Source of the DNA: an uncultured virus (IMG/VR IMGVR_UViG_3300030329_004627)
Lineage: Duplodnaviria; Heunggongvirae; Uroviricota; Caudoviricetes
Virus record (IMG/VR): IMGVR_UViG_3300030329_004627
Length of the DNA stretch: 64,000 nt
Reading direction: 5' to 3' (one strand)
Shown: in pieces, positions 1-27,028 of the stretch
How positions within the stretch are numbered: the stretch's first letter is position 1
How the letters are laid out: each line of letters opens with the position of its first letter
Made by a program: the position numbers and the translations under genes
The notes under the pieces: generated by a model
Told to the model about the DNA's origin: nothing
What the model saw: the letters and a program-made list of their open reading frames with translations, nothing else
Database searches by the model: none

Positions 1-1182
1 ATCTATGGAGGCTCTTATGAGGACACTTCTGGTGTTACTGGTCGAAAAGAGTTGATGATGAATTTGACAAAGTTTATGAGCAGTGATTTTATAGGAACAG
101 TTAAGCAAAACCTTGAAACCGAAAATGATCTGCCTCCTGAATGGGTCGGTAATATCGAAGAAATTCTTAAGAGCGAATGTGCTTTAATCAGAGAAGACTG
201 GAATCCAAAATACGCTAATTGTAAAGTCGACTTTTATGTTAGAAATACAGGTGAGAATGACTGGTATGTTATTCCAGAAGGCAAAATATTGCTTACTTGG
301 GATGTGTCCGAGTGGAAGCAGCTTCCAAATGTAGTTCAAGGCCAGGACATTGCCGCATATTTAAATGAACATTATTACGATCCAGAAGGCGTTTCGGGCG
401 ATCTGTTCGATGAAGACAAAGGCGCAATTTATCGGGGCGGAACAGAAGAGCATCCAGAAATTGTTTGGCGTTGTGAGTTTAATAATCAACTAGTGCCTAA
501 CATGGGCGGTCAAAAAATAGTATTTGATGCTGACGGTTTTGAACATTTTTGTCAAGGTATCAACCAGCTTGATGATAAACGAGACATGTTTACGGCACTT
601 ATAGAACAATATGCAAAACAACAAGGTTGGCTTGAAGGTCATATGTATATGAGTTTAGCGCAAAAAATTGAGGATGACGAGATTGGATCTTACGAGTGGG
701 ATGTCGAATACGACAAAGAGCATTATACAGAGTCATACGAAGCATGGGCCACAGTATCTTATGATTTTGATCCCGAAGAATTAGGAATTGAACCAAGAAT
801 TTTGTTTGATCTCGTAGATCGTAGAGAGTTTGCGCTTCGTCTTAGGGGATACTTAACTGCGCTGGCTAGAGAATATTCAAGTACTGATTATTGGCTCTCT
901 ATTCGCGATAAGAGCGCAGTAGAAGTCGGAGGCGAAGTTCGCTATAGTATAGCTTTTAAAGTAGACGCAGACACCCCTGACGACCTTGTAGCGCAGTTTT
1001 TTGAACTAGTTACTGGCGATATGGATGACGAAGACGAAATTGCGAAGGCATTTATGGGTGCTTTACGAGAAGAAGCAGCAAAAAATGGTATTAAACTTAG
1101 CGGCCCTGCTCCGGCGCCCGAAAAACAACGTAACTTTGATGATCTTAAAGATCTCGGAGAAGTGTGGAGAAGATTTATATGA
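1..1182 (+). CDS. Acidic hypothetical protein, 5' partial (possible virion internal protein)
   Basis: Frame 1 is open from base 1. Very acidic; the C-terminus LKDLGEVWRRFI resembles the ENWR leader of the downstream genes. Confidence 0.75.
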   Translation: MYGGSYEDTSGVTGRKELMMNLTKFMSSDFIGTVKQNLETENDLPPEWVGNIEEILKSECALIREDWNPKYANCKVDFYVRNTGENDWYVIPEGKILLTWDVSEWKQLPNVVQGQDIAAYLNEHYYDPEGVSGDLFDEDKGAIYRGGTEEHPEIVWRCEFNNQLVPNMGGQKIVFDADGFEHFCQGINQLDDKRDMFTALIEQYAKQQGWLEGHMYMSLAQKIEDDEIGSYEWDVEYDKEHYTESYEAWATVSYDFDPEELGIEPRILFDLVDRREFALRLRGYLTALAREYSSTDYWLSIRDKSAVEVGGEVRYSIAFKVDADTPDDLVAQFFELVTGDMDDEDEIAKAFMGALREEAAKNGIKLSGPAPAPEKQRNFDDLKDLGEVWRRFI

Positions 1183-1991
1183 AACTCTTAATGGAAAATT
1201 GGAGAAATTATCAAAAAGATTTGTTGACAGAAGGTAAAATTTTTGATGCAATAAAAAATGGTTTCAAAAAGTTGATCGGAATTCCTGAAAAGCTTGACCA
1301 AATGGTTGAGCAAACAAAAGAAAATTTTAGAGCCAACATTAATAACAATCTTGAAATTTGGGCAGAATCTCCTGAAATGCAAAAAGCGGCTGAGGAAATT
1401 GCTGATAGTGTTTCGTACAGCTATGGCGATAATCTACAAGAAGCTCAGAATAAAAAAAGCTTTACGGTCGATGAACTAAGAGAGATGGGCGTCGGCCCTG
1501 AAACTATAGAACTAATTAAAATAAGCTCTGCTGAAGTGGTAGCTGACACGCTAATTTCAAGCGCAGAAGAAGCAGTTGGAAAAGTAGCGCCACCTGCAGT
1601 CAAAGATTGGTTAGTAAGATTTGTTTCTAAATTTATTGGCTCATTTGTATTTGGATTTATTGATAATTTTATTATGGTAGTTGCAGGTAGTCAAATTGAC
1701 GCTGTTATTGGCGGCGTGGTTGGTGGAGCAATTGGTAGCGCAGTTAACACAGCTATGCTAGCGGCTGGTCTTGGAAATACTTTATCAGATGCAATTGGAG
1801 AATTGGCCTCTAATTCAATCGAAAGTGCAATGGAAAAAATGGGACTTGATCCCCAAGCCGTTACAGATGAAGAGGTTGCTGCTGGGCCAATTTGGATGAG
1901 ATTTTTAGACAAGCAAGCTAGTGTTATTGGAATTATTTTAGGTTGTTTAGTTGGATTGTTTCCGTTATTTTTAGAAGAGGAAAAAAAATGA
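1179..1991 (+). CDS. TMEM65-like membrane protein with MKLLMENWR leader
   Basis: Start ATG 1179 overlaps the upstream stop (ATGA). FGFIDNFIMVVAG, AAGLGNTLSDAIG and IGIILGCLVGLFPL match TMEM65-family motifs as I recall them. Confidence 0.75.
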   Translation: MKLLMENWRNYQKDLLTEGKIFDAIKNGFKKLIGIPEKLDQMVEQTKENFRANINNNLEIWAESPEMQKAAEEIADSVSYSYGDNLQEAQNKKSFTVDELREMGVGPETIELIKISSAEVVADTLISSAEEAVGKVAPPAVKDWLVRFVSKFIGSFVFGFIDNFIMVVAGSQIDAVIGGVVGGAIGSAVNTAMLAAGLGNTLSDAIGELASNSIESAMEKMGLDPQAVTDEEVAAGPIWMRFLDKQASVIGIILGCLVGLFPLFLEEEKK

Positions 1992-2509
1992 AACTATTAA
2001 TTGAAAATTGGAGAAATTATATAAACGAAGAAATGGATGCTGATTCCGGCATGGCGCAAAGTCCAGAGGAATGGGTAAATGAATATGGTGAAAAAATCGC
2101 GAGACTCTTTATAGATAATGGAGCATATGGACTGTTCATGGCTGAAAACATAAGTACTCCACCAGAGTTTATGAATGAACTTAAAAAAATTATGAGTAAA
2201 GTAGCTAAACTTTTAGCAGTTGCTGAAACATCAAATTTTAGGTTGCTCCGACCAAGTTATCGACATCGCCCCGAGAGATATGTCTTAGAGATTAGAGAGG
2301 ATTTTAAAAAATTACTGGAGATGATTGCTCCTACGGCCGACGCACGAAAAGAATTAGTTGATCTTATGGGAGCCAGCGGCGGCGCTGGTCATTTGCAAAA
2401 TTTGGCTTTTTATGGTGAGGCCGCAAACAGAGGTTTGAAAATTCCTGAAGAATTAGTAACCAGCTTTGATGAGATGAAGAAATGGGTAGGAGATTATTCT
2501 TATAAATGA
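1988..2509 (+). CDS. Hypothetical protein with MKLLIENWRNYINE leader
   Basis: ATG 1988 overlaps the previous stop; shared leader motif. Confidence 0.8.
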   Translation: MKLLIENWRNYINEEMDADSGMAQSPEEWVNEYGEKIARLFIDNGAYGLFMAENISTPPEFMNELKKIMSKVAKLLAVAETSNFRLLRPSYRHRPERYVLEIREDFKKLLEMIAPTADARKELVDLMGASGGAGHLQNLAFYGEAANRGLKIPEELVTSFDEMKKWVGDYSYK

Positions 2510-3168
2510 AACTCTTAATGGAAAATTGGCGGAAGTTTTTAACTGAGATTAGTGTTTTTGAGAAAGACGCTGCAGTCAACACAGTTCTTGACAGGATGGG
2601 CAAAAGCGAATTCTATCCAGAAGTAGACGATGCTAGAGTATTTGTGAATAGACAAGCGGCTATGTTGATGGCGCGGGTGCCTATGGTGTGGCAAATGATT
2701 AAAGTTTTTAATCAAGACCCAGACATTACCGAACAAGATGTTCTTGAAATACTTTTACAAAGAGCACTCAAAGGCAGAACGTTTGAAGCGCTTACAAAAA
2801 GCGAACAAGAGTATATGGAAAAATACGGCTTAAAATATCCTGAAGAAAAAGAGGAGGAAGAAATAGAAATTCCTTCTTATTCTCGCGAAGATATTCCTCC
2901 TGAGTTAATGGATGCCGGCACCCAAGTGTTTATTCCAGATTATGCCAAACGAGGAGGCCTTATTCAAGAGAATAATGAAAAAGAAGGTAAAGTTACTGTA
3001 GCTGACGCATTATTATCCTTGACTCTAAATGCAAATATGCAAGGCGGTATCGGGCCACATATTCTCTTTAAAATGAATGATGAAGATTTAATGAAACAAA
3101 TCCAAGCTCATAATCATCGGAAAGATGAAGTTTCCGATGAAGAATTATATAATTATTTAAGGGGTTAA
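2506..3168 (+). CDS. Hypothetical protein with MKLLMENWRKFLTE leader
   Basis: 220-aa ORF; shared leader motif. Confidence 0.8.
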   Translation: MKLLMENWRKFLTEISVFEKDAAVNTVLDRMGKSEFYPEVDDARVFVNRQAAMLMARVPMVWQMIKVFNQDPDITEQDVLEILLQRALKGRTFEALTKSEQEYMEKYGLKYPEEKEEEEIEIPSYSREDIPPELMDAGTQVFIPDYAKRGGLIQENNEKEGKVTVADALLSLTLNANMQGGIGPHILFKMNDEDLMKQIQAHNHRKDEVSDEELYNYLRG

Positions 3169-3170
3169 TA

Positions 3171-3623
3171 ATGAAACTTTTACTTGAAAATTGGCGCGAA
3201 TATATAAATGAAGTGGCCATGGGACACGACATGGCAAAATCTATTGAATATACCGGATTTATTTTAGATAAAGGCTCACACCAAAAGTTAGCGCAGTTGG
3301 CGCCCGAAGGTTGGAAGGTCTATGCACACCACATGACAATGATTCCGCCGACTGAACAAAAGCAACGTTTGCCCACCGATCAGTTTTATGAAGGGTGTTT
3401 AACTGTCACTGGAATCGCTCAAAATGAGCGCGTTATTGCAGTAAGGGTTGACAGTGAGAGTCAAAACCTGTATAATAAGATTGAAGGCCTTCCACATGTT
3501 ACTATTGCTACCAATCCAGAAGCCGGCGGAAAGCCTGCAATGTCTAATGAATTTTCAGAGCAAGATTTTCAACCTATTGATCCTATTGAGATTTGTGGAA
3601 AGGTTGAAGAAGTTTTAAGATGA
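3171..3623 (+). CDS. 2H phosphoesterase (tRNA-ligase CPDase-like) with MKLLLENWR leader
   Basis: Two HxT motifs (HHMTM, PHVTIA) plus GGKPAMSN. Confidence 0.75.
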   Translation: MKLLLENWREYINEVAMGHDMAKSIEYTGFILDKGSHQKLAQLAPEGWKVYAHHMTMIPPTEQKQRLPTDQFYEGCLTVTGIAQNERVIAVRVDSESQNLYNKIEGLPHVTIATNPEAGGKPAMSNEFSEQDFQPIDPIEICGKVEEVLR

Positions 3624-4207
3624 AGCTCCTACTTGAAAATTGGAGAAAGTTTCTTAAAGAACAAAAAGGACAATACCAAATCTATTGTGATATGGATGGC
3701 GTGCTTGTTGATTTTGTTGCAGGAACTGTAGAGTACATTACTGAACAATTACAAGCCGGTGAGGCCGAAGAGCTAAAAGAAAAGATTGGCAGAGATTATG
3801 TAACCGAAGAAGACATTCATTACAGTAACCCAAATAAAAATAAACATATTAGAGTTTACATGTTCAAAGAACTTAAAAACCATGCAGATTTTTGGGAAAA
3901 CTTGCCATGGATGCCAGGAGGTAAGGAATTGTGGGATTTTATCTCTCAATTTGATCCTTATATTTTAACAGCACCCATGGGTTACGGTTCCGAGATTGGA
4001 AAACAAGCTTGGATTGATAAAAATCTACAACCTCCTCCTTCTAAAGTTTTTATGTCTCATGATAAGTTTAAATGGTCGGGATCAAATCATATTTTGATAG
4101 ACGACTTTACAAAAAACACAATTCCTTGGGAGCAGGCTGGAGGAATCGCAATTTTACACACCGACGCAGGAATTACTATCAAAAAGCTTGAAGAGCTTGG
4201 CCTTTAA
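3620..4207 (+). CDS. HAD 5'(3')-deoxyribonucleotidase-like protein with MKLLLENWR leader
   Basis: YCDMDGVLVDF, FWENLPWMPGG, ILTAP, ILIDD, WEQAGG. Confidence 0.85.
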   Translation: MKLLLENWRKFLKEQKGQYQIYCDMDGVLVDFVAGTVEYITEQLQAGEAEELKEKIGRDYVTEEDIHYSNPNKNKHIRVYMFKELKNHADFWENLPWMPGGKELWDFISQFDPYILTAPMGYGSEIGKQAWIDKNLQPPPSKVFMSHDKFKWSGSNHILIDDFTKNTIPWEQAGGIAILHTDAGITIKKLEELGL

Positions 4208-4234
4208 GTCTACTTACAAGTAGGAGAACTTATT

Positions 4235-4555
4235 ATGTCGGATAATCAAGGCTGGGAAACTTATTCTAAACTAGTAATACAACAACTAGAGACTCTTAAT
4301 GTCGGTATTGAAAGTATGCGTAAAGAGCTTCAAGATGTAAAGGAGCAAATTACAAAAATTAAAGCAAAAGAAGATCGATTAGAAGAACTTAAAGCCTGGA
4401 AAGACAAAATAGATGAGGTTGTCTCCCCCTCTCAGATGAAATATGCGATGAGAGAGCTAGAAAATTTAAGAACATTTAAAACAAAAGCTGTTACAATATT
4501 TGCAGTTGTTCAATTTGCAATGGCTGCCGCAGTTTTAGTCTCTAGATTTATTTGA
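4235..4555 (+). CDS. Coiled-coil protein with C-terminal TM helix (holin/XhlA-like architecture)
   Basis: SD AGGAGA; heptad pattern followed by a hydrophobic C-terminus. Function uncertain. Confidence 0.6.
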   Translation: MSDNQGWETYSKLVIQQLETLNVGIESMRKELQDVKEQITKIKAKEDRLEELKAWKDKIDEVVSPSQMKYAMRELENLRTFKTKAVTIFAVVQFAMAAAVLVSRFI

Positions 4556-4573
4556 TATTCTAGTTATTATACA

Positions 4574-4855
4574 ATGGCTAAAGATTCTGCTAAGCTTGTA
4601 AAACAGATTATTAAACAAATTTCTGGAAATGTAAGCCCTGAAGATGATTTAATACCTGAAGCTGCTATAAAAGGATCAGGAGACATATGGTGCTGGGATC
4701 CCGTTAGTAGGAGTCATAAAAAATTGTATCGGGGAGTAAAAATATACATTCTCCAAGAAAACTATGATTATCTAAGCCGAACTTTGATATATACATTTAA
4801 TGGAGACATGGTTTGTTTGGACCCGATAGATATATTGCACACAGGCTTTGATTGA
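4574..4855 (+). CDS. Hypothetical protein
   Basis: 93-aa ORF in the operon. Confidence 0.65.
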   Translation: MAKDSAKLVKQIIKQISGNVSPEDDLIPEAAIKGSGDIWCWDPVSRSHKKLYRGVKIYILQENYDYLSRTLIYTFNGDMVCLDPIDILHTGFD

Positions 4856-5341: not shown

Positions 5342-5666
5342 TCACATAGCCATACTTGTAGACGATTTAGAGGCCGCAGAAGAGTGGTATACCCAAAAAT
5401 TGGCCGGAAAAGTAACTTTTCGCGATACAAAATACATTAGAATAAGTATTTCCAATACAAACATAGCCTTAATAGATAAAAACCATTACCAGTATGCTCA
5501 TTTTGGCATTTTAGTAGAAAATAAAGAAGATTTACCTTTAGAAATGGGGGAAGTAGTTTATCATCGCGATGGAACGATTGGAGTTTATGTAAAAGACCCA
5601 TTTGGCAACTATTTAGAATATATTTGGTACTCTGACGAACAAAAAGAGGTATTTTTGGATGATTGA
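5325..5666 (+). CDS. VOC/glyoxalase family protein
   Basis: DHIAILVDDLEAAEEWY, HFGILV, YVKDPFGNYLE. Confidence 0.85.
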   Translation: MLSIVDHIAILVDDLEAAEEWYTQKLAGKVTFRDTKYIRISISNTNIALIDKNHYQYAHFGILVENKEDLPLEMGEVVYHRDGTIGVYVKDPFGNYLEYIWYSDEQKEVFLDD

Positions 5667-7062
5667 CGTTTTAAAACCATTAATTCAACAATTTATGCCG
5701 TTTGCGCAAGAAAAAATGGGATTTTCAAGGCCCCCTAAGTTATTTTTACGCCAAGATGAGCAAAATGCAGCAAATCCGATGGGAAAAACTGGATTTTATG
5801 ACCCAGAAAACGAATCTGTCACTTTATACATTACGGGAAGGCACCCAAAAGACATTATGCGCTCTTTAGCACATGAATTAATGCATCATACTCAAAAATG
5901 CAATGGTGAGTTTGATAATGTACAAAGTATGGGAGAACAAGGTTATGCGCAGAGTGATCCACATATGAGAAATATGGAAATACAAGCTTATCAAGCATCT
6001 ATTGTGTTTCGCGATTGGGAAGACAGCACAAAAGGTACTATTTATTATGAACATTTACAAAAAGGAGATAAAAGTTCAATGTCTACAAAAGATTGGAAAA
6101 ACGAGGAGCTAAAAAGTCTCCTTGCTGAGAACTGGGGTTTCAAAATGGATCTCAGCAAATTAAATAAAGAAGAAACACATAAAAAAGTTTTAAATGAAGA
6201 CAATAATCAGATTTTTGCACCTAATCATTATTGCGTGCATCATGGCGGTGTTCATCACAATGGCTCTATTGAAATGGCAGAAGCCGTAAATCATAATTAC
6301 AATGAAAAGCTTGGTCGTGTTACACACTATGACATGAAACTTTCTGATGGTACTATTTTAGAGAACGTTGCTGCCGAAGACATTCAAGTTACAAATGCTA
6401 GTTTAGCTGAAGCTCATGATTCGCCAGGTAAGCGCGATGACGATGCAAAACCAGATTATATTGATTTAGATAAAGATGGCGACAAAGAAGAGCCAATGAA
6501 AAAGGCGGCTAAAGATAGAGATGCCGGAAGAACTGGTTCTGGTGTCGATCATGGTGGCGATGATGATGAAGAAGCGAAAAAAGAAACAGAAGGTAAAGCT
6601 GACAGCAAGCGCGAGCTTGAAGAGTATGCTTCAAAGCGCGATGGAGAATCTAAAGGCGATAAAGGCAAAGACAAGGAAGATCCAAAAGATCGTGATTATA
6701 GTGGACATGGAATGCGCAAAGGCGATAAGTCTGACACACATAAAGGCGAGAAAGACGACACAACTAAGAAAGGCGAAAAACTTAAGCACAGCGGCAAAGG
6801 ACGTGGTGAAAAGAAAGGTGATGAAGCATACATTAACGAAGATGATATGAGCCCTGGAGCCCACAAGGCTGCAGCTAAAAGAGATTATCCAGAACCTTCT
6901 TTAGAAGAAGATGGCGCAAAAAGAAAAGATGATCCGAGGCTGCGTAGACCAGATGCAGATCGTCTTCGTGAAAATGTTGTGAAACTACGTAAGGCGGGAT
7001 TTTCAAAAACTCAGATTAAAGAGTTTTTAGGCAACGCTTATAGCAAAGCTTTAAAGGGATAA
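5659..7062 (+). CDS. HEXXH zincin-like domain plus charged scaffold-like region
   Basis: RSLAHELMHH; D/E/K-rich C-terminal half containing DLDKDGDKEE; probable internal start at 6079. Confidence 0.75.
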   Translation: MIDVLKPLIQQFMPFAQEKMGFSRPPKLFLRQDEQNAANPMGKTGFYDPENESVTLYITGRHPKDIMRSLAHELMHHTQKCNGEFDNVQSMGEQGYAQSDPHMRNMEIQAYQASIVFRDWEDSTKGTIYYEHLQKGDKSSMSTKDWKNEELKSLLAENWGFKMDLSKLNKEETHKKVLNEDNNQIFAPNHYCVHHGGVHHNGSIEMAEAVNHNYNEKLGRVTHYDMKLSDGTILENVAAEDIQVTNASLAEAHDSPGKRDDDAKPDYIDLDKDGDKEEPMKKAAKDRDAGRTGSGVDHGGDDDEEAKKETEGKADSKRELEEYASKRDGESKGDKGKDKEDPKDRDYSGHGMRKGDKSDTHKGEKDDTTKKGEKLKHSGKGRGEKKGDEAYINEDDMSPGAHKAAAKRDYPEPSLEEDGAKRKDDPRLRRPDADRLRENVVKLRKAGFSKTQIKEFLGNAYSKALKG

Positions 7063-7065
7063 ATT

Positions 7066-9120
7066 ATGGGTGGTGCCGCTGGGCATATGAATCACCCATT
7101 CGATTTAGATTGGGTTAAAAGCGGTTCTGACCTTTTAGATTTTTTCAATCGAGCAAAAACCTTTGTTGAAGAAGCAAGAGGCGGGAGCGTCAAGATTGAC
7201 GGCGTGAACGTGTCTTTTAAGGTGGTCGAAACACCTAATGGGCACGAGTTCGCTGTTGATCGTGGCTCTATGAAAGAAATTGACATTAGCGGAATTACCG
7301 TAGACAGATTCGCTGAAAGATTTCCACCTGGGCACGGAATGCGCAGATTTGTTGCGCAACTTTTAACTATTCTTAATGCAGCTATTGGTGAAGTAGAGCC
7401 CGAACTTAAAGCTTTAGGAATGTGGGATGATCCATCCATGTTTCTTAACACTGAATACGTTGAAGGCAAGACTAACGTTACTCAATACGATGAGAACTTT
7501 CTTGCTATTCATGGCTTAAATCAATTTTACCAACGTGTAGCAAAATCGGGCGCTAGCAAAGGCAATGTGCGACCAGGTGCAGAGCGCCCTACCATGGTCA
7601 ATCCAAAAAATGGCAAAGAGGTGCCAATTAAAGATCCCAGCAGAGAAGTACCTTATGATCCAGCAGTTATGGCCACGCTGATTGAAAAACTTCGTCCTTA
7701 CGGTGAAGAGTATGGTTTTCAAATTTATGGCGATGTCCCGACAGAGGCAATGGCAGATGTAGACTATACAGGTGCTTTATCAGAACCATTATCTATTAAA
7801 ATCTCAGACGATCGAACAATTAAAAAATCTTTGGGGGAATGGCTTCAAGAAGCACGTAATCCCGGCTATAGATCTATGAAAGTGCGCATTATTGATGATA
7901 ATGGAGATGTTAAGACTATGACATGGCACCCTCTTCATAAAGATCTTTATAAGACACTTTCCAGCGGTAAACAGTCGGTTGTCGACACAGTAGATGAACA
8001 AGACGCCGAAGACGCCATTTATGGCACAGTGTTTATGCATGCCGCACGAATGCTTGGAAATGAAATGTTAAAGGCTCTAACTAGTCCTATGGGCGATGTA
8101 ATCAACCATGAAGGGGTAGTACTCCGAGACGAAGAAGCATTTGGCACCACAAAGCCTGTTAAAATTACAGGCGAGTTTATTATTGGAGGCACAGCTTCTG
8201 ATTTTCAAAAAGCTAGTGGTGCGCCAGTTATTATGAAAGAACAGGAAGAAGATGAAGATCCTGTTGTTGATATTGAATTTGAAGATGAGCCGGCTCAAGG
8301 TGAAACAGTTGCGATCGTTCCTGGTGCTTTTAAGCCGCCACACATGGGGCATGTAGACATGGTTGAGCAGTATGCACAAGGCGCCGATCGAGTTGTCGTT
8401 TTGATTTCTGCTCCTACTAAAAGTGGTAGAAAATTACCAAATGGTCGAGAAATTACAGCAGAAGATTCAGAAAAAATTTGGAATCTATTCGTAGGCTCTA
8501 ATCCAAAAGTAGAAGTTTATAAATCCTCTCACGCTTCCCCAATAAACGCAGCTTATGAAATTACTGGAAAAGCAGGTATGCGAGAAAAGGTTGCAGAAAA
8601 AATGGGTATGGATCCTATTAGCGCTGGAGATACAATTATTTTAGGTGCTAGCAACAAGGGCGGAGATGCAAAACGCTGGACTGGCGCCGAACGATACGTA
8701 GGGGACGATTTAAATCTTATTTCACCTATGGAAAGTGCTGTTGAGCCGTTAATGCGCGCCAATGGCGAACCTTTTAGCGCTACAGACATGAGAAATCTTT
8801 TAGGAGATACTCTTGCTAATGTAGATGCGTTAAGAGATTTCGCTGGTGATAATGTTAACGATGTTTTAGCAATTTTAGGCGTACAATCTTTAGAAGAAAC
8901 TTCAACTATGGCTGGCGGAAGCGTTCAGGGTGCCGCAGTAAGTTCTAAAGGCAAAGGACCATGGGCCAACAGCAAAGAAATTAAAAAAGATAACGAAGAA
9001 GAAGAAAAAAGACAAAGGCTTGATACTAGAGGCGCTTTAGCTTCATTAGAAGAAAAAATTGATTTAAGCTTGGTTGACGAAGTTATGAGACTAATTATGA
9101 CAAGAGGCATTTTACAATGA
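7066..9120 (+). CDS. RNA-ligase-like nucleotidyltransferase domain fused to HxGH cytidylyltransferase-like domain
   Basis: N-half: VKIDGVN, NTEYV, HEGVVLR, PVKIT. C-half: PGAFKPPHMGH and FSATDMR. Confidence 0.65.
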   Translation: MGGAAGHMNHPFDLDWVKSGSDLLDFFNRAKTFVEEARGGSVKIDGVNVSFKVVETPNGHEFAVDRGSMKEIDISGITVDRFAERFPPGHGMRRFVAQLLTILNAAIGEVEPELKALGMWDDPSMFLNTEYVEGKTNVTQYDENFLAIHGLNQFYQRVAKSGASKGNVRPGAERPTMVNPKNGKEVPIKDPSREVPYDPAVMATLIEKLRPYGEEYGFQIYGDVPTEAMADVDYTGALSEPLSIKISDDRTIKKSLGEWLQEARNPGYRSMKVRIIDDNGDVKTMTWHPLHKDLYKTLSSGKQSVVDTVDEQDAEDAIYGTVFMHAARMLGNEMLKALTSPMGDVINHEGVVLRDEEAFGTTKPVKITGEFIIGGTASDFQKASGAPVIMKEQEEDEDPVVDIEFEDEPAQGETVAIVPGAFKPPHMGHVDMVEQYAQGADRVVVLISAPTKSGRKLPNGREITAEDSEKIWNLFVGSNPKVEVYKSSHASPINAAYEITGKAGMREKVAEKMGMDPISAGDTIILGASNKGGDAKRWTGAERYVGDDLNLISPMESAVEPLMRANGEPFSATDMRNLLGDTLANVDALRDFAGDNVNDVLAILGVQSLEETSTMAGGSVQGAAVSSKGKGPWANSKEIKKDNEEEEKRQRLDTRGALASLEEKIDLSLVDEVMRLIMTRGILQ

Positions 9121-9899
9121 ATAAAGATGAGCAAATCTTAAGAGAAAGCATACGACATTTAATAAAGTATGTCAAGCAAAAAAAACAAAACGAAGAAAGT
9201 CAGATTAGAAAATCTTTAAAAGAACTTCTAAGACTTGAATTAAAAGTTATGCTTAGTGAAGCAGATGTTCCAGATGTTGATCCAACTCCTAATAAATCAA
9301 CGGGCATTAATGTGCTAGAACAATTGTTAAAGAAAATTGTTCCTGTATTGGAAACTGATTTTAAATCTCTTACTACGTCTGTTGATCAAAGAAATTCATT
9401 TAGAGCACACATTGTTAATGCGGTGATTAATACATTAACTCCTGCAAAAGTTAACAACGAAGCTGGCGAAGAAAAATCTCTTGATGAAGAAATTGATATT
9501 CAAATCGGAGATGATGACGATAAGTTTATTGACATCAGAACTGATGCAGAGAAGAAAGCCGAAGAAGAAGAAAATGCCCCAGACGCCCGCGAAGAATTTG
9601 GTTCAGGTGTCGATGGAGATGAAACTGGTCGTAACATGGCTTACGAAAGCTTCAAAAAAATTGAATCAAGCGTGATTGACTCTTATGAGTTGCTTTCTAA
9701 TCCTGAAGATCAAGAAGTTTTTTATGATTATTTAATTGCTAATCTCAAGCTTTATTTTGATAAGTTTGAGGGAGAGCTAGCTGATACAGTTAGCGAACCA
9801 ACAAACCAAGCTTACGATAGCGCAAAAGAAGAACCTGCTCCTGAAGAAGGTGGTGGCTTTGATTTAGGCGGAGAAGAAGAACTGGAAATTGAACTATGA
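9117..9899 (+). CDS. Acidic hypothetical protein (possible head-associated)
   Basis: 260-aa ORF with LRESIR helix and acidic tail. Confidence 0.75.
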   Translation: MNKDEQILRESIRHLIKYVKQKKQNEESQIRKSLKELLRLELKVMLSEADVPDVDPTPNKSTGINVLEQLLKKIVPVLETDFKSLTTSVDQRNSFRAHIVNAVINTLTPAKVNNEAGEEKSLDEEIDIQIGDDDDKFIDIRTDAEKKAEEEENAPDAREEFGSGVDGDETGRNMAYESFKKIESSVIDSYELLSNPEDQEVFYDYLIANLKLYFDKFEGELADTVSEPTNQAYDSAKEEPAPEEGGGFDLGGEEELEIEL

Positions 9900-10747
9900 A
9901 ATTATTGATAGAAAATTTTAGAAAATATCGCGCTGAGCATGATTTTAAATTATTGTGTGAAAATTTTGATCGTGGAATTATAACTGAACAAGAATTGTAT
10001 GAGACTTGGGAACGTCAAGTACTTTTAGAAATGGACAATCTTATTGAAGAAGGTATTATGGACATTCTTCAGCAAGGATATCAAAAAGGAAAAGAACTAG
10101 TTGGCAAAGCAAAAGAAATGTATGACGCCGCTGTTCAAAAAGTGTCTGATTTTATTTTAAAACTTTCCACTCAAGCTTTTATGTTGATGGAAAAAGCTAA
10201 AGTTATGCTAGCTAAAATAGCCGGGGTGTTAAGAAAAGCTTATAATTTTATTAATAAATTTTGCGGTGCCCATCCAATTTTATGTAGAGTAGTCAAAATT
10301 CTACTTATAATGATTTCTATAGCTGCTGTGATGGCTTTATTTGCTAGCCCGGCACAGGCTTCTGTAGATGTTAGTGGAATGTACCCTGATGAAAGCCAGT
10401 CTAGCTTATTAACTGATAGCGGGTTAGAAGCAATTAAAGGAATGATGGCTTTAGGAACAGAAGACGCGGATCCAGACGTTCAACAAGCTGCAGTTGATGC
10501 TTTCAATTGGCTAGAGCAAGCGCATAAAAGTGAACAAGTAGTCGACTTGGCAAAAGAAGGCCCAGAGCTGGTTCAGAAATTTTATCTAAAGGTAGATGCT
10601 GAAAGTCCAGAGATGTTTGATCTACTAGTTGACATAGGAAAAGAAACTACAACAGTCACAAGAAAGTATTCCGAAACAATACTGTTAGATAATAAAACGA
10701 CTATTAAAACTTTTTCTCACCAAGCATTAAAGGCTCCGTCATTTTGA
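9896..10747 (+). CDS. Hypothetical protein with MKLLIENFR leader and one internal TM segment
   Basis: Leader motif; ILLIMISIAAVMALFA hydrophobic stretch. Confidence 0.75.
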   Translation: MKLLIENFRKYRAEHDFKLLCENFDRGIITEQELYETWERQVLLEMDNLIEEGIMDILQQGYQKGKELVGKAKEMYDAAVQKVSDFILKLSTQAFMLMEKAKVMLAKIAGVLRKAYNFINKFCGAHPILCRVVKILLIMISIAAVMALFASPAQASVDVSGMYPDESQSSLLTDSGLEAIKGMMALGTEDADPDVQQAAVDAFNWLEQAHKSEQVVDLAKEGPELVQKFYLKVDAESPEMFDLLVDIGKETTTVTRKYSETILLDNKTTIKTFSHQALKAPSF

Positions 10748-10802
10748 CTGCGACTACGGCAAGTTGAAAACACTTGTGAAAACATTTTTTCGCAATTGTC
10801 AC

Positions 10803-10831
10803 TTGACAAGCTTTCTGAAATCAGTTACCTT
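10803..10831 (+). promoter_or_regulatory. Sigma70-like promoter
   Basis: TTGACA-N17-TACCTT upstream of ATG 10842. Confidence 0.55.
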
Positions 10832-10841
10832 TATATATGTG

Positions 10842-11189
10842 ATGGCAAACAAACAAAAGCTTTCAACTACTATCAATAAAAGCATTATAACTAAATTAAG
10901 AGATCAAAACAAGTTAAATGATAGTTTATTAGTGTTAATTTCTAATCTTACATTAGAAGACCTTATAGCTATCAAGTTAGAGCTTTCATGTAATCTTATT
11001 AATAACAGGTTGTATGGTTTTGATATTTGGAGAAACTCTAATAAGATTGTTCAGGAAGCAATTTTAAAGTTTGCAATCTCAACAACCAAATCTAAAAAAG
11101 ATGCAGCAAGATTCTTAGATCTTACCTATGTAGAATTTAAGAAACTTCTCAGAAAGTACGAAGTAGAAAATTACTTCAACGATGTTTGA
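10842..11189 (+). CDS. Fis-like HTH protein
   Basis: C-terminal SKKDAARFLDLTYVEFKKLLRKY. Start placed at ATG 10842, downstream of the promoter. Confidence 0.6.
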   Translation: MANKQKLSTTINKSIITKLRDQNKLNDSLLVLISNLTLEDLIAIKLELSCNLINNRLYGFDIWRNSNKIVQEAILKFAISTTKSKKDAARFLDLTYVEFKKLLRKYEVENYFNDV

Positions 11190-11199
11190 AAAACTTAAA

Positions 11200-11301
11200 C
11201 CAACCGTTTAACTAAAGTAAGTTAACATCCTGATGCCTAATAAGGATGTAAAACATTTGGAAGGCTAGCGAGTGGGGAGCAAAAGAACCACAGACGGTTG
11301 G
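11200..11301 (+). ncRNA. Candidate structured RNA (multibranch, possible pseudoknot)
   Basis: Closing helix CCAACCGTTT/AGACGGTTGG with internal hairpins AACT/AGTT, ACATCCT/AGGATGT and GTGG/CCAC. Confidence 0.5.
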
Positions 11302-11309
11302 CTTTTTAT

Positions 11310-11645
11310 GGGAGCGAAATGGATTCGACAGGGTAAGGATGAAGTCGAGTGCAAGTAGGTAAGATACAGCCTTAATAGTTCAAAATAATAGTTGCAAATA
11401 ATAACACACATTTCGAAGCAGCACGCTTAGCGGCTTAATCGAGGAGGCCGATTAGAGCCTTCTATCCAATCTAATCAAAATAACAGACAAGTTATAAAAA
11501 TCAAACCATCTAATGCAACAGGACGGTAAGCATTGGATTATAGCCGTCTACTTTTGTTGGTAGTTGATAAAAACCAACTAAGCTTGTGAATGACTTGCCT
11601 TTTGAAGTATCGTGGACGCGGGTTCGACTCCCGCCGCTTCCACCA
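11310..11645 (+). ncRNA. ssrA: tmRNA
   Basis: 5' GGGAGCG...GGATTCGAC; 3' GGTTCGACTCCCGCCGCTTCCACCA; G3-U pair in the acceptor stem; tag frame 11394-11438 reads ANNNTHFEAARLAA*. Confidence 0.95.
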
Positions 11646-11665
11646 TTTAATTAAGGAGAAATAAA

Positions 11666-11833
11666 ATGAGAGAATTTTTAAGTTCACGTTATGTTAGTCT
11701 TGGATGCTCAGTAATCAACGGCGTATTTGCCGTTACTATGCTTCTTGATGAAAGCTGGATCCTCGCTGGTATTTGTGTATTGGCGTCTGGTTATTGCTTT
11801 GGAAATTATGTTAAGGCTAATAAAAATGAATAA
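11666..11833 (+). CDS. Small 2-TM membrane protein, 55 aa (not in ORF track)
   Basis: Strong SD AAGGAGA; MREFLSSRYVSLGCSVINGVFAVTMLLDESWILAGICVLASGYCFGNYVKANKNE. Confidence 0.7.
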   Translation: MREFLSSRYVSLGCSVINGVFAVTMLLDESWILAGICVLASGYCFGNYVKANKNE

Positions 11834-12026
11834 ATTTATACAAAATATACGAAATAAGATACAATACAAACAAGTACAAAAAGTGCACATCATCGATGAC
11901 GACTTAGACGATGATGTAACAGACGAAATTGAAAAAGCTTTATGGGTTTTAAAAGAAGATATGGATCTTCCAACAGAAGAAATAGAAAAAGCAGTTAAAA
12001 GTCGTAAAATTATAAAGGATAAATAA
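11826..12026 (+). CDS. Hypothetical protein
   Basis: Probable start ATG 11826, overlapping the previous gene. Confidence 0.6.
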   Translation: MNKFIQNIRNKIQYKQVQKVHIIDDDLDDDVTDEIEKALWVLKEDMDLPTEEIEKAVKSRKIIKDK

Positions 12027-12482
12027 ATGAAAACGGTAACTAATGGAAGCAATGTAACGTTGCACTACAAAGGAACTTTAAATAATGGTGAAGTTTTTGA
12101 TGATTCAAAAGCGCGCGGCTCTACAATGTCGATTACTGTTGGTCAAGGAAGACTAATCAAAGGTTTTGAATCGGCTCTTATTGGAATGACAGAAGGACAA
12201 ACTAAAAATATTAATTTAAACTCTAAGGAGGCATATGGGCCTATTCGTCCTGATGCTATTGTTACAGCTCCAAAAAGCGCTTTTCCTGAAAACTTTGTTT
12301 TTGAAGAAGGTTTGCAAGTCACGGGAAGAACAGCTGAAGGCCAAATGTCGTATGCTAAAATTGTCTCGTTTACTGATACAGAAGTAACGTTAGATCATAA
12401 TCACCCTCTTGCTGGTCAAGATCTTAACTTTGAAATTGAAATGGTCAAAATTGATGACTCAGAAACTAATACAAATGAGTAA
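12027..12482 (+). CDS. FKBP-type peptidyl-prolyl isomerase (SlyD/FkpB-like)
   Basis: VTLHYKGTLNNGEVFD, LIKGFESALIGM, LDHNHPLAGQDLNFEIE. Confidence 0.92.
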   Translation: MKTVTNGSNVTLHYKGTLNNGEVFDDSKARGSTMSITVGQGRLIKGFESALIGMTEGQTKNINLNSKEAYGPIRPDAIVTAPKSAFPENFVFEEGLQVTGRTAEGQMSYAKIVSFTDTEVTLDHNHPLAGQDLNFEIEMVKIDDSETNTNE

Positions 12483-22961: not shown

Positions 22962-24242
22962 ATGAAAAAGAAAACAATTTTGGTCTTATCGGACCATCCA
23001 TTATCGCCATCAGGCGTTGGCACACAGACAAAGTATTTTATTGAAGCTTTGTTAAAAACTGGAAGATATAGGTTTGTATGCTTAGGTGGTGCTATTAAGC
23101 ATCATGATTATCAACCGCAGACAGTTGACCCATACGGTAAAGATTGGTTAATTTTTCCTATTGACGGATACGGTAATCATGAAATGGTTCGCTCCGTCAT
23201 GCAAAAAGAAAAACCAGATGTTCTATGGTTTATGACTGATCCTAGGTTCTACGGCTGGCTTTGGGAAATAGAAAACGAAGTTAGAGCAAATGTTCCTATG
23301 GTATATTATCATGTTTGGGATAACTTCCCGGCCCCAGATTATAATGGCAAGTTTTATCGTTCTACGGATGAGGTTGTGTGTATATCAAAAGTCACTCATG
23401 AGATTGTTAAAAAAGTAGCTCCTAATGTTTCTTCTGTTTACCACCCTCATGCTGTTAATAACGAAATATTTAAGAAATATAAGAATAATGAATTAGATTC
23501 TGTAAATCAAATGCTAAAAATGATCAAGGAAGAAAGATCAGAGTTTAAGAATCCCAATAAGAAGCTTTTTTTCTGGAACAATAGAAACGCTAGAAGAAAA
23601 CAAAGTGGAACATTAATTTGGTGGTTTAAAGAATTTTTAGATAAGGTCGGCCACGATAAAGCATGTCTAATGATGCATACTGATGCAAGAGATCCGCATG
23701 GCCAAGACTTGCCTTATATTATTGATCATCTTGGAGTTAGTCGAGGCCAAGTATTTTTGTCAACCAACAAAGTTGATCCTCCTGCGTTAGCAACAATGTA
23801 CAATGCTGCAGATTTTACGATTAACATCTCTGACGCTGAGGGGTTTGGATTAGCTACGCTTGAGTCATTGTCTTGCGGAACCCCTATTATTGTTAATATG
23901 ACAGGAGGCCTTCAAGAACAAGTCACGAATGGTAAAGAATGGTTCGGGTGGGGAATCCAGCCATGTTCAAAATCAGTAATTGGCTCATTGTCCGTTCCAT
24001 ATATTTATGAAGATAGAATCAGCAAAAAAGATTTTATTGATGTTCTTACAAAAGCGATTAACATTAGCGATTCTCGATATAAGAAGATGTCCCAGCAAGG
24101 CATAGCCCATGTAAAAGAAAACTACAGCTTCGACAAGTATGAAAAAGGATGGGTTGATTTGATTGATTCAATCATAGAAAAACACGGCTCTTGGGGCACA
24201 AGAAACAACTACAAAAGATGGCATTTAATGGAAGTAGCATGA
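22962..24242 (+). CDS. GT4-like glycosyltransferase
   Basis: NNRNARRK, EGFGLATLESLSCGTPII. Confidence 0.9.
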   Translation: MKKKTILVLSDHPLSPSGVGTQTKYFIEALLKTGRYRFVCLGGAIKHHDYQPQTVDPYGKDWLIFPIDGYGNHEMVRSVMQKEKPDVLWFMTDPRFYGWLWEIENEVRANVPMVYYHVWDNFPAPDYNGKFYRSTDEVVCISKVTHEIVKKVAPNVSSVYHPHAVNNEIFKKYKNNELDSVNQMLKMIKEERSEFKNPNKKLFFWNNRNARRKQSGTLIWWFKEFLDKVGHDKACLMMHTDARDPHGQDLPYIIDHLGVSRGQVFLSTNKVDPPALATMYNAADFTINISDAEGFGLATLESLSCGTPIIVNMTGGLQEQVTNGKEWFGWGIQPCSKSVIGSLSVPYIYEDRISKKDFIDVLTKAINISDSRYKKMSQQGIAHVKENYSFDKYEKGWVDLIDSIIEKHGSWGTRNNYKRWHLMEVA

Positions 24243-25489
24243 AAAAGAAAATTTTACTAAAAGGACCTTTACTTACACGATCTGGCTATGGAGAACAAGC
24301 TCGTTTTGCATTAAGATCTCTGCGCACAAGGCAAGATATTTTTGATATTTTTATTCAACCAATCCAATGGGGACAAACTTCTTGGCTTAATGAGTCAACT
24401 GAGGAAAGACAATGGATTGATCAACAGATTGAAAGAACAATCGGATATATTCATCAAGGTGGGAAATTCGATATCTCTTTACAAGTTACAATACCAAATG
24501 AGTTCGAAAATCTAGCAGAGTACAATGTAGGATATACCGCCGGTATTGAAACAACAAAAGTAGCGCCACAATGGATTCAAAAGTCAAATGAAATGGACAA
24601 AATAATTGTTGTTTCAAAGCACTCAAAAGATACTTTTATGTCTAGCACATTTGGTGGCGTACACCCTCAAACTAATGAAAAGCTAACGCTCTCGCTACAA
24701 ACTGATATTGAGTATGTCAATTATCCTGTAAAAGTATTTGAAAAACTCACCGAGCTTCCTCTTGAGATTCCTACTGAAATTAATTTTTTGTCGATCGCGC
24801 AACTTGGCCCTCGTAAAAATTTATTTAACACAATCAAATGGTTTCTTGAAGAATTTTCAAATGATAATATAGGACTTGTAGTTAAAACGAATAAGGCAAA
24901 AAATTGTCTAATGGATCGAGAAATCGTTCAACATGAGCTACATCAACTTTGCCAATCGGTTCCTGATACTAAAGCAAAAGTTTATTTAATTCATGGAGAT
25001 ATGACTGATGAAGAGATTCACTCTCTCTATCAGCACCCTAAAGTTTCGGCATTTTTAGCACTTCCGCACGGTGAAGGGTTTGGTTTGCCTATTTTTGAAG
25101 CAGCATATAGTGGGTTGCCGGTTGTATCAGTTGGCTGGTCCGGTCAGATGGATTTTTTATGTGATGAAGATAGAAAAGAAAATTTTTACAACGTTGGATT
25201 CGATATCGGACCCGTTCAAGAACAAGTTATCTGGGAAGGGGTCATTATCAAGGAATCTATGTGGGCTTACGCACGCGAACAATCATCTAAAGAAAAGATG
25301 AGAGAGTGCTATAATGATATTATTAATAATGCTGGGTATGCCTCTAAAGCTATAGAATACGCCGAAAATCTTAAGGAAAGATTTTCTGAACAAAATATGT
25401 ACGAAAAGTTTGTTAATAATGTATATCCAATGGAAAAAATAGAAAAAGCTCAAAAAGACGTTGAAGACCTGCTAAGTGATTTACTATGA
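24239..25489 (+). CDS. GT4-like glycosyltransferase
   Basis: RSGYG, PRKN, HGEGFGLPIFEAAYSGLPV. Confidence 0.9.
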   Translation: MKKKILLKGPLLTRSGYGEQARFALRSLRTRQDIFDIFIQPIQWGQTSWLNESTEERQWIDQQIERTIGYIHQGGKFDISLQVTIPNEFENLAEYNVGYTAGIETTKVAPQWIQKSNEMDKIIVVSKHSKDTFMSSTFGGVHPQTNEKLTLSLQTDIEYVNYPVKVFEKLTELPLEIPTEINFLSIAQLGPRKNLFNTIKWFLEEFSNDNIGLVVKTNKAKNCLMDREIVQHELHQLCQSVPDTKAKVYLIHGDMTDEEIHSLYQHPKVSAFLALPHGEGFGLPIFEAAYSGLPVVSVGWSGQMDFLCDEDRKENFYNVGFDIGPVQEQVIWEGVIIKESMWAYAREQSSKEKMRECYNDIINNAGYASKAIEYAENLKERFSEQNMYEKFVNNVYPMEKIEKAQKDVEDLLSDLL

Positions 25490-26343
25490 AACATTTTGTT
25501 TTTATCTCTGACATGTTTGCTGACACGTATCGTGGAGGCGCAGAGCTGACTACAGATGCTATTATGCGCGGCGCCCATATAGACAGCAATATTGCAATAG
25601 GTAAGATTCCTAGCCATGCGGTTACGGTACAACAAATAGAAAAAGGAAAAGATGTACATTGGATAGTGTGTAATTTTTCAGCTCTTAATAGTGATGTTAA
25701 GATTAAGATGTGCAAAGAATCAGTTTATTCTATTATTGAATATGATTATAAATTTTGCAGCTTTAGATCTGTTGAAAAACATAAAGCGATTACAAAAAGT
25801 GAATGTGACTGCTTAAACGATTTTGAAGGTAAGCTTAATATGGCTTTTTATGGATATGCTCAAAAAATTTGGTTTATGAGCGAAGGTCAAAAAAATATTT
25901 TTATTAAATACATGCCGCATTTGAAAAATAATAATCTAGAAGTTTTAAGTTCTATATTTTATCCTGGCGATTTAAGATTTATGAGTTCTATAAAAGATAA
26001 CGAAAAAGAAAATCCTTATATTATTTTAAAATCAAGCTCATGGATCAAAGGAACTCAATCGTGTATTGAATACGCTAAAGAAAACAACCTAGATTATGAA
26101 CTTGTTGAAAATTTATCTTATCACGAATTGTTAATTAAAATGTCTACTGCTAAAGGTTTGATTTTTAGACCTCTTGGCAATGATACTTGCCCACGTATTG
26201 TGATCGAAGCGAAGCTGCTTGGCTGCGATTTAAAAATAAATGATTTCGTGCAACATAAAGACGAAGAATGGTTTTCATCTCAACAATCTTGTTATGATTA
26301 TCTTTTTAATAGAGTAGATAAGTTTTGGAAACATTATGAATAA
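25486..26343 (+). CDS. Glycosyltransferase-like protein (GT-B)
   Basis: GGAELT; DTCPRIVIEAKLLGC. Confidence 0.7.
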   Translation: MKHFVFISDMFADTYRGGAELTTDAIMRGAHIDSNIAIGKIPSHAVTVQQIEKGKDVHWIVCNFSALNSDVKIKMCKESVYSIIEYDYKFCSFRSVEKHKAITKSECDCLNDFEGKLNMAFYGYAQKIWFMSEGQKNIFIKYMPHLKNNNLEVLSSIFYPGDLRFMSSIKDNEKENPYIILKSSSWIKGTQSCIEYAKENNLDYELVENLSYHELLIKMSTAKGLIFRPLGNDTCPRIVIEAKLLGCDLKINDFVQHKDEEWFSSQQSCYDYLFNRVDKFWKHYE

Positions 26344-27028
26344 AAAAACATTAATATTAATGGGAAATGGTCCGTCTCTAAAAGATGTTGACTTTGATAG
26401 ATTAAAAGAGTACGATACTTTTGGTTTGAATTCGGCATATCGTGCTTACGAAAGAATGAATTGGTATCCAACGTATCATGGTTGTTTTGATTATAGAGTG
26501 ACCGAATGTCACAAAGAAAATTTCATCAATCTAATCGAAAACAGCCCTATTAAAAAATGCTTTTATATTGTTCCTATTAGTGAGGCAGAAGGAATACAGT
26601 ACGTAAATATGAAGCCATATGGCACTACTAATAAATGGAACAGTAATGAGAATGATTATGCGGATTTTCACGACAATGGTAATTCGGGAGCTAATGCTTG
26701 CTCAGCTGCTGTTTGCATGGGATATAAAAAAATCATTCTTTTAGGAGTTGATTGTAACTATGTTGAATTTATCGATGGCAGCAAAAAAGATGGCCCTGGG
26801 TTGATTATCGATAAGACACCAGACAAGAATCCCAACTACTGGTTCGACGATTACCAACAAGCCGGCGACAAATATAATATTCCAAGAGGAGCAGACTTTC
26901 ACTTACCTACATGGAATACCTTTGCTTATCGAGCCGCTCATGCAGATATTGAAATAATAAATTGCAGCCCGATTACCACACTTCGTTGCTTCAAAAGAAT
27001 GACACTTAAGGAAGCTTTAAATGATTGA
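26336..27028 (+). CDS. DUF115/Cst-type ulosonic-acid transferase-like protein
   Basis: ILMGNGPSL, FGLN, MGYKKIILLGVD, IINCS. Confidence 0.7.
   Translation: MNKKTLILMGNGPSLKDVDFDRLKEYDTFGLNSAYRAYERMNWYPTYHGCFDYRVTECHKENFINLIENSPIKKCFYIVPISEAEGIQYVNMKPYGTTNKWNSNENDYADFHDNGNSGANACSAAVCMGYKKIILLGVDCNYVEFIDGSKKDGPGLIIDKTPDKNPNYWFDDYQQAGDKYNIPRGADFHLPTWNTFAYRAAHADIEIINCSPITTLRCFKRMTLKEALND

Follow-up and report, generated by a model that had tools for sequence, protein, structure and literature searches.

A TMEM65-family membrane protein with a T4-like leader peptide in an uncultured phage

The window analysed here is a stretch of 64,000 nucleotides from an uncultured Caudoviricetes virus (IMG/VR record IMGVR_UViG_3300030329_004627), phage DNA with nearly all genes on one strand. 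Close to its left end lies a plus-strand gene for a 270-residue acidic protein (isoelectric point, pI, 4.4), composed of an 18-residue leader, a 129-residue acidic helical region and a bona fide three-helix TMEM65 membrane domain (Table 1). The open reading frame (ORF) called mechanically runs from 1164 to 1991 and opens with GTG; we place the start at the ATG at 1179, the start common to 50 of 62 homologues. TMEM65, a protein of the mitochondrial inner membrane, was tied to calcium efflux only recently. We judge it an even call that the phage protein is packaged in the head, trimmed by a protease and ejected as a module that enters the host membrane; the evidence lies in the domain, in a leader common to a run of unrelated genes, and in relatives that carry the same domain inside giant polyvalent proteins.

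The TMEM65 domain and its relatives

PF10507 is the one Pfam-A family matched by the protein (E 1.3e-20; 73.8 bits, 49 bits above the curated cut-off of 25), with residues 156–265 spanning profile positions 7–107 of 109 (101 positions). The first-pass annotation had named TMEM65 on the strength of three sequence blocks. All three (SFVFGFIDNFIMVVAGSQIDAV, TAMLAAGLGNTLSDAIGEL and QASVIGIILGCLVGLFPLFLEE) are found in the translation of 1179–1988 on the plus strand, and the assignment proves correct, judged by the significant profile match and by retention of the invariant polar residues of the family. We aligned 100 diverse domain sequences, drawn from phages, bacterial metagenome-assembled genomes (MAGs) and giant-virus MAGs, together with representatives that include a choanoflagellate protein, P0142. 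Nine residues are invariant across this set and the window protein keeps every one (F158, G159, F160, D162, N163, G199, N200, G255 and G259); it also keeps all ten of the further columns that are nearly invariant, G170, S203, D204 and G207 among them. E215 is the majority residue at its position. The domain hence carries D162/N163, G170, D174, N200/S203/D204, G207 and E215, plus a glycine zipper, G251xxxG255xxxG259, whose three glycines are invariant or nearly so. Hydropathy peaks are centred on residues 161, 173 and 256 (Kyte–Doolittle values of 1.83, 1.76 and 2.48), the second helix being weakly hydrophobic.

Mutants of human TMEM65 allow these residues to be read in functional terms. Activity is reported to need D132, D167, G170 and E178, the G140L and Q195E mutants are described as wild-type-like and E144Q as stronger, and the glycine zipper is a named feature of the protein (PMC12830682). 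The human spacing (D132, +8 to G140, +4 to E144; D167 at +35 from the first aspartate, +3 to G170, +8 to E178, +17 to Q195) is matched exactly by our alignment consensus, so the seven mutated positions can be mapped onto the window protein. Judged by spacing and residue type, D132, G140, E144, D167, G170, E178 and Q195 would correspond to D162, G170, D174, D204, G207, E215 and approximately E232. The phage protein shares with eukaryotic TMEM65 the same Pfam domain, three helices, the glycine zipper and an acidic C-terminal tail (present in mammalian TMEM65 as well; PMC12830682), and keeps equivalents of D132, G140, E144 (as D), D167, G170 and E178. It differs in lacking a mitochondrial presequence and having instead the phage leader, which starts MKLLMENWRNY, and the acidic helical region; its loop between transmembrane helices 1 and 2 (TM1 and TM2) is 7 residues longer, and its domain identity to eukaryote-like representatives is ~25–45%. 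The literature on TMEM65 itself is split between an exchanger acting on its own and a regulator of NCLX. The purified protein is described as a homodimer that performs Na+-dependent Ca2+ exchange in liposomes (PMC13254257, citing another study), and a report from another group presents it in its title as a regulator of NCLX (10.1101/2023.10.06.561062). By its sequence, the phage protein may transport ions too.

Of 1.84 billion cluster representatives searched with a HMMER profile, 2,219 matched at E <= 0.001, of which 1,525 reached E <= 1e-10; P0142 is among the matches. Searching with the whole protein in a word-indexed collection gave 62 clusters, all metagenomic, all labelled PF10507 and 37–100% identical. 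Three IMG/VR contigs encode full-length homologues, with the gene again amid leader genes (eight in L001, seven in L002). The sole match among 50,697 cultured-phage records is NVP2275O_332 of Vibrio phage 2.275.O._10N.286.54.E11 (94 residues; 42.6% identity over residues 148–262), a stand-alone domain of a jumbo phage that sits amid tRNA genes and, unlike the window protein, has neither leader nor N-terminal region. Its depositors tagged it pfam:PF10507 in the GenBank entry; this automatic tag in one entry is the sole record of the family in phage, and we found no paper on phage TMEM65 by title or abstract. Species-representative bacterial genomes hold the domain alone at nine loci, eight of which read as proteins of 111–131 residues from Proteobacteria MAGs. 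These stand-alone bacterial proteins (~111 residues) have a domain 31–50% identical to that of the window protein and the same invariant residues, and differ in having no leader, N-terminal region or acidic tail and a shorter TM2–TM3 loop without the K-x-G-L motif. That motif belongs to a post-TM2 signature, ...[IL][ED]...K.G[LI]..., which in the alignment is common to phage, polyvalent and eukaryote-like forms and absent from the short bacterial ones. Giant-virus MAGs (GVMAG contigs, L005–L020) also encode stand-alone TMEM65-domain proteins, of 88–165 residues. A plasmid collection gave no match to the domain. By BLAST, bacterial, polyvalent and eukaryote-like domains are similarly distant (37–46% identity), and neither a donor nor a direction of transfer can be derived from these values.

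The acidic region that precedes the domain (residues 19–147) is conserved across the family and in P0070, a 789-residue relative, and has no Pfam or PHROG match; ESM Atlas held no usable match for residues 19–150. A full-length AlphaFold2 model (69-row alignment) was unusable, with a mean predicted local distance difference test score (pLDDT) of 50.7 that fell to ~30–36 in the membrane domain. Modelled by itself (100-row alignment), the domain forms long helices with a mean pLDDT of 89.5 and a predicted template modelling score of 0.78. Foldseek found nothing for this domain model in the PDB at E <= 0.001 (best E 3.5), and VIA-align against 48,161 chains reached Z 6.2 at best (Ctr1, root mean square deviation 8.0), noise level for helical models. 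Searching our PDB copy with the sequence profile gave only spurious cytochrome P450 rows, and no TMEM65 structure was found there. The best matches in BFVD have a Foldseek probability of 1.00 with E-values >0.001. The first of these is a 94-residue viral chain, probably NVP2275O_332 (37% identity; template modelling score 0.78, normalised to target), and the others are proteins of Heterosigma akashiwo virus 01, a Megaviridae sample and a Mimivirus-like MAG. A homodimer prediction for residues 138–270 scored 0.34 against a mark of 0.42, with controls at 0.00, and speaks neither for nor against dimerization.

The leader peptide, the phage lineage and its cargo island

The leader flagged by the first-pass annotation is real. 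The pattern MKLL[MIL]ENWR[NKE][YF] opens five consecutive genes, beginning at 1179, 1988, 2506, 3171 and 3620, and no further copy is present in any of the six reading frames of the window; the stops and starts of these genes overlap (ATGA) or sit 2 bases apart, an operon-like arrangement. A degenerate DNA pattern for residues 1–9 matched at least 140 IMG/VR stretches. In 182 IMG/VR instances from the matches listed, residue 11 is mostly Y or F (157 instances), residue 12 L, I, V or M (156) and residue 14 E (136), with conservation ending after residue 14. We then pooled 52 sources, namely the window, seven viral loci and 44 loci from metagenomes, the latter located by way of ORF1 (the gene that precedes the TMEM65 gene), and considered ORFs of at least 60 residues. 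The leader stands on 129 ORFs from 40 of the 52 sources, belonging to 53 unrelated families when the first 20 residues are removed before counting, and [LIVM]xE occupies positions 12–14 in 112 of the 129; the set is partly redundant, with L182 an exact copy of the window and L216 one of L217. At the level of DNA, conservation starts at the ATG, with none upstream, and the leader codons vary synonymously (CTC/CTA/CTT, TTA/CTA, AGA/CGG/CGC). Synonymous leucine and arginine codons and conservation from the ATG onwards together argue for selection on the peptide.

Within the family of the TMEM65 protein, the strict leader is present in 50 of the 62 clusters and a form with a GTG start or one substitution in 8, leaving 4 without; it is thus retained in 58 of 62, down to ~40% identity. 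The terminal motif is shifted here to LTE at residues 16–18, directly before a conserved G.I.D..K.GF.KL, and all 50 strict-pattern members have this second [LI]xE before the same sequence. In P0070, which has no ENWR leader, the alignment starts by pairing residue 11 with window residue 18 (39% identity, hhalign E 3.6e-47), and the different, 12-residue N terminus (MPENKSAKRLDE) ends in LDE right before the same glycine. A cut by the prohead protease is predicted after E18.

This anatomy resembles that of the T4 internal proteins IPI, IPII, IPIII and Alt, which are processed by gp21: a peptide common to unrelated proteins, with an M-K-x-hydrophobic-x-E start and an [LI]-x-E end. Read from NC_000866, IPII and IPIII start MKTYQEFIAE/A and IPI starts MKTFKEF...ITE/A (MKTFKEFTSTTTPVSTITE/A), the slash marking the cut. 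The likeness extends to hypervariable cargo genes and, in five large related genomes, to an S77 protease together with a capsid protein of the gp23 type. There are differences too. The marine leader has 14 residues (18 in the TMEM65 protein) rather than 10, and an NWR core that T4 does not have; its cargo is acidic and not basic, and comprises dozens of families including enzymes and a TMEM65 membrane protein. T4 propeptides of 10–19 residues are described as directing proteins to the prohead core, with residues 4 and 7 mattering for targeting and 8 and 10 for processing, and this route may enable T4-like phages to load a variety of proteins (PMC9026906). By analogy, we infer that the leader is a T4-type, capsid-targeting-like signal. 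Literature searches with the leader strings ENWRK, ENWRN, ENWRE, ENWRQ, ENWRR and ENWRG returned no phage paper, by title, among the matches listed.

The lineage was placed through a baseplate gene. The first 12 kb of the window gave no megablast match in the 50,697 phage records, and the gp6-like protein of the window is at best 31% identical to one of a cultured phage. Full-length homologues of this protein, 42–47% identical, occur in five IMG/VR genomes of 151–201 kb, and each of the five encodes leader-bearing proteins, a gp23-type capsid protein and a prohead protease that scores above the Peptidase_S77 cut-off. Since the gp6 relatives carry both head genes in five of five cases, the window probably comes from an uncultured marine lineage whose head is of the T4 type.

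ORF1, which shares a stop–start overlap (ATGA) with the TMEM65 gene, encodes a protein with no Pfam or PHROG family match. It ends in a leader-like stretch, ...LKDLGEVWRRFI (window 1144–1179), and its homologues (L183–L220) keep W[RK]RF[IL] C termini; this motif is possibly the same binding peptide in a C-terminal form. T4 Alt is described as processed at both ends (PMC9026906). The ends of ORF1 homologues, ...LVKTWKRFIL and ...MQRRWTRFLLDV, resemble the NWRx[YF][LI] core of the N-terminal leader, and in the sub-lineage of L212, L216 and L220 the homologue also opens with a degenerate leader, MKDWLQDWNKFLNEE. ORF1 of the window proved unrelated to the gene that precedes the TMEM65 homologue in L002. 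At the 44 ORF1 loci, leader-tagged genes usually follow directly after the ORF1 homologue and differ between loci, a hypervariability that recalls the diversity of T4 internal-protein genes (PMC3012670, PMC9026906). The leader-tagged cargo (L001, L002, L176–L179 and L182–L225) includes PGDYG-domain proteins and an AAA_33 kinase-like protein; interspersed with these genes are NUDIX and thioesterase genes, themselves without a leader.

Polyvalent fusions and the role of the protein

Eight of the best 150 clusters of the profile search are proteins of 789–3,037 residues. PF10507 was found in all 13 long relatives scanned against Pfam, and 7 combine it with hallmark domains of polyvalent proteins. 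The TMEM65 module is joined to InPase and LPD1 in P0147, to InPase in P0166, to ddrB-ParB in P0173 and P0202, to an N6-methylase and a SNF2 helicase in P0185, to a Sno-type helicase in P0107, and to an ArdA-like region in P0070 (24.4 bits, below the cut-off of 27). The 33-kb IMG/VR contig L004 adds a protein of at least 1,597 residues (3–4796) with ART-PolyVal and an internal TMEM65 domain, followed by a helicase-like giant of 2,196 residues (5500–12090). The module inside these giants is the same, including its pre-TM1 and post-TM2 motifs. Two or more disparate domains, the feature that defines a polyvalent protein, are seen in P0147, P0166, P0173, P0202, P0185, P0107 and the L004 protein; the window protein, by comparison, is small, has one recognised domain and bears a T4-type leader in place of the fusion.

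Polyvalent proteins are predicted to be injected along with DNA (Iyer et al. 2017, PMC5512222); the main text of that survey contains no mention of TMEM65, DUF2453 or 'transmembrane'. P1-like phages have darB genes that match P0185 over its methylase–helicase part, and none of those cultured genes spans the N-terminal TMEM65 module. DarB and DdrB of phage P1 are reported as head proteins by liquid chromatography with tandem mass spectrometry, DarB having its own N-terminal packaging signal and being believed to enter the cell (PMC9024508). The first-pass annotation had proposed a protein delivered by the virion; that idea remains an indirect one, strengthened by the T4-like anatomy of the leader in a lineage whose large genomes encode a T4-type protease and by the polyvalent fusions.

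Taken together, these observations suggest the following course. During prohead formation the leader would bind the scaffolding core, as its anatomy likens it to the T4 capsid targeting sequence, and a gp21-type prohead protease would cut after [LI]-x-E, most likely at LTE18/G19, leaving an acidic product of 252 residues and 27 kDa inside the capsid. This product would exit the virion with the DNA, like T4 internal proteins and P1 DarB, a step suggested by the fusions in its relatives. By homology, its glycine-rich TMEM65 helices would enter the host cytoplasmic membrane, where the conserved intramembrane Asp/Asn/Ser site, made of the residues that human TMEM65 needs for Na+-dependent Ca2+ efflux, could move or leak cations. 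As infection begins, this would locally alter membrane potential or ion gradients, or else the helices would tether the cargo at the site of entry. We put packaging and ejection at even odds or slightly better and, granted these, lean modestly towards a role in cation transport over one in anchoring or a conduit.

Several observations weigh against this proposal. A three-helix membrane domain is awkward capsid cargo, what would keep it from entering the membrane of the producing cell is unexplained, and we know of no precedent for such an integral domain as soluble cargo of a capsid. T4 internal proteins are basic, and the TMEM65 cargo protein is acidic (pI 4.4). The number of membrane helices is odd, so the flanks of a polyvalent fusion would lie on opposite sides of the membrane unless cleaved. 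The head genes (S77 protease and gp23) are not within the 64-kb window, and the protease was found in none of the three viral contigs with full-length homologues, which are fragmentary (4–36% complete). Leader arrays lie at a distance from the protease gene (in G006, leaders at 10–15 kb and protease at 104 kb), and the T4 late-promoter box TATAAATA is not enriched in the window (4 found, 7.7 expected). A cultured Vibrio phage and bacteria have stand-alone forms that lack a leader, so the domain need not be packaged to be useful. Finally, the TMEM65 gene is absent from all five large related genomes and from 43 of the 44 ORF1-syntenic metagenome loci, the remaining locus being the identical twin of the window; the gene is therefore an exchangeable cassette of a cargo island that is hypervariable, accessory and not part of a core entry machine.

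The alternative that survives best, which we regard as possible and clearly less probable than packaging, is an ordinary inner-membrane protein of the infected cell, never packaged, that serves cation homeostasis, superinfection exclusion or lysis timing; its leader would have another purpose, or would fail to load so hydrophobic a cargo. Such a protein would be at home with the leaderless stand-alone forms of the cultured Vibrio jumbo phage, giant-virus MAGs and bacteria, and three hydrophobic helices would normally insert co-translationally. T4-type proheads are described as assembling on the inner membrane (PMC9026906), where a core-tagged membrane protein could act, and a coiled-coil protein with a transmembrane helix and a weak holin match (E 6.6e-4) is encoded 2.2 kb downstream (4235–4555). 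It is harder to reconcile with a leader and [LI]xE kept in 58 of 62 clusters down to ~40% identity, with the recurrence of the module in polyvalent proteins of the injected type, and with the place of the gene in an overlapping run of leader genes.

We think it rather unlikely that the protein is packaged and ejected with its TMEM65 domain in a structural capacity, as a membrane anchor or part of a conduit for DNA or co-injected proteins. The ejection proteins of P22 are reported to form a trans-periplasmic conduit (PMC8402733), the polyvalent module is flanked by enzymes bound for the cytoplasm (methyltransferase–helicase, ParB-like nuclease, ART), and there is a weak PHROG match to tape-measure proteins (phrog_167, E 0.0037). 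However, the polar intramembrane residues for ion transport are invariant in phage and polyvalent forms, which a mere anchor would not need, and a gene that is accessory cannot be a general DNA channel.

That the shared 5' end is a feature of the DNA, such as a recombination or expression cassette, and not a peptide signal is very improbable. The hypervariable island, with a different leader gene after the ORF1 homologue at most loci, would suit it, and the degenerate leader-like stretch directly upstream of the ATG, in the end of ORF1, is what would be expected if leaders were recombination points. Against it stand the absence of conserved DNA upstream of the ATG, synonymous codon variation within the leader and the conservation of positions 11, 12 and 14 as residue classes; both roles could coexist. 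A chance likeness of glycine-rich hydrophobic sequence to TMEM65, for which one might cite the low complexity of transmembrane segments and structural searches without a solved relative, is effectively refuted already by a score so far above its cut-off, by charged and polar invariants in register over 100 sequences and by 1,525 clusters at E <= 1e-10, one of them eukaryotic (P0142).

Neighbouring genes and implications

Leader-bearing genes 2–5 follow the TMEM65 gene (Table 1). If the leader loads the capsid, the genes at 3171 and 3620 would supply injected nucleotide-directed enzymes. The 2H-like gene at 3171 was compared with T4 57B and gave no significant BLASTP match (E 19).

Table 1. Position and basis of features at the left end of the window
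Feature	Position	Strand	Basis
ORF1, C-terminal 393 residues of a conserved protein of ~810–940 residues preceding the cargo array	1..1182	+	44 metagenome loci, full-length homologues
Gene for the leader and TMEM65-domain protein, 270 residues	1179..1991	+	Stop 1989–1991; ORF list, Pfam PF10507, 62 homologue clusters
Leader, residues 1–18 (MKLLMENWRNYQKDLLTE)	1179..1232	+	L-x-E at 4–6 and 16–18; common to five tandem genes
Acidic helical N-terminal region, residues 19–147, pI 4.6, no known fold match	1233..1619	+	AlphaFold2 helices, pLDDT ~57–76
TMEM65 domain, residues 148–266, three hydrophobic helices	1620..1976	+	Pfam, invariant columns, hydropathy, domain model
Acidic C-terminal tail, EEKK after L265–E266	1977..1988	+	Sequence; E267 nearly invariant in family
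Leader-bearing gene 2, 173 residues, no family match	1988..2509	+	Pfam, PHROG, leader
Leader-bearing gene 3, 220 residues, no family match	2506..3168	+	Pfam, PHROG, leader
Leader-bearing gene 4, 150 residues, 2H-phosphoesterase-like	3171..3623	+	Pfam tRNA_lig_CPD, 28.8 bits (cut-off 23)
Leader-bearing gene 5, 195 residues, 5'(3')-deoxyribonucleotidase	3620..4207	+	Pfam NT5C, 25.9 bits (cut-off 24.8); phrog_2643, E 1.5e-24

Just past the leader genes, the coiled-coil protein at 4235–4555 has 106 residues and a C-terminal transmembrane helix, its weak holin match being to phrog_689 (E 6.6e-4). Elsewhere the window encodes PhoH, Hsp20, thymidine kinase, an HNH endonuclease, gp25 and gp6 baseplate proteins and two giant fibre-like proteins. 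The latter are ORFs of 2,166 residues (43771–50271) and at least 3,327 residues (54018–63998, running off the window), the second with Laminin_G_3 and pentaxin-like domains; both adjoin the gp25/gp6 baseplate genes and are probably fibres or adhesins. A block of ~16 kb (22962–39381), unusually large for a phage, is devoted to sugar nucleotides and glycan modification, with glycosyltransferases, epimerases, cytidylyltransferases, methyltransferases, an aminotransferase fragment, an aldolase and a sialyltransferase-like gene. PADLOC reported nothing meaningful. In L001, upstream of the leader array, a 345-residue protein (2129–3166) has a weak match to the tubulin/FtsZ GTPase family (E 1.6e-6; 29 bits, cut-off 33) and is possibly a PhuZ-like phage tubulin.

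Both parents of the arrangement described here are known, the TMEM65 family on one side and T4-type targeted cargo and polyvalent proteins on the other; their combination, as a tagged cargo and as a polyvalent module, is new. The capsid-tagged and polyvalent contexts, with functional residues kept in each, point to a shared role at DNA entry. More tentatively, and with doubt outweighing confidence, TMEM65 in prokaryotes might be mainly a module of invasion proteins, shipped in the particle by phages and perhaps other mobile elements through a T4-type tag or a DarB/DdrB-type fusion and fired into the cytoplasmic membrane of the recipient, where a dimer would open a path for cations in the first seconds of infection. 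Small phage and bacterial homologues offer tractable material for structural work on a family without a solved structure in the PDB copy searched. The finding bears on how T4-type phages handle the inner membrane and ion gradients at DNA entry, which is poorly understood. If the proposal is true, it would widen phage head cargo from soluble enzymes and DNA mimics to a membrane transporter, the first integral membrane transporter packaged in a capsid, and would suggest an origin in conflict systems for a mitochondrial ion carrier of eukaryotes.

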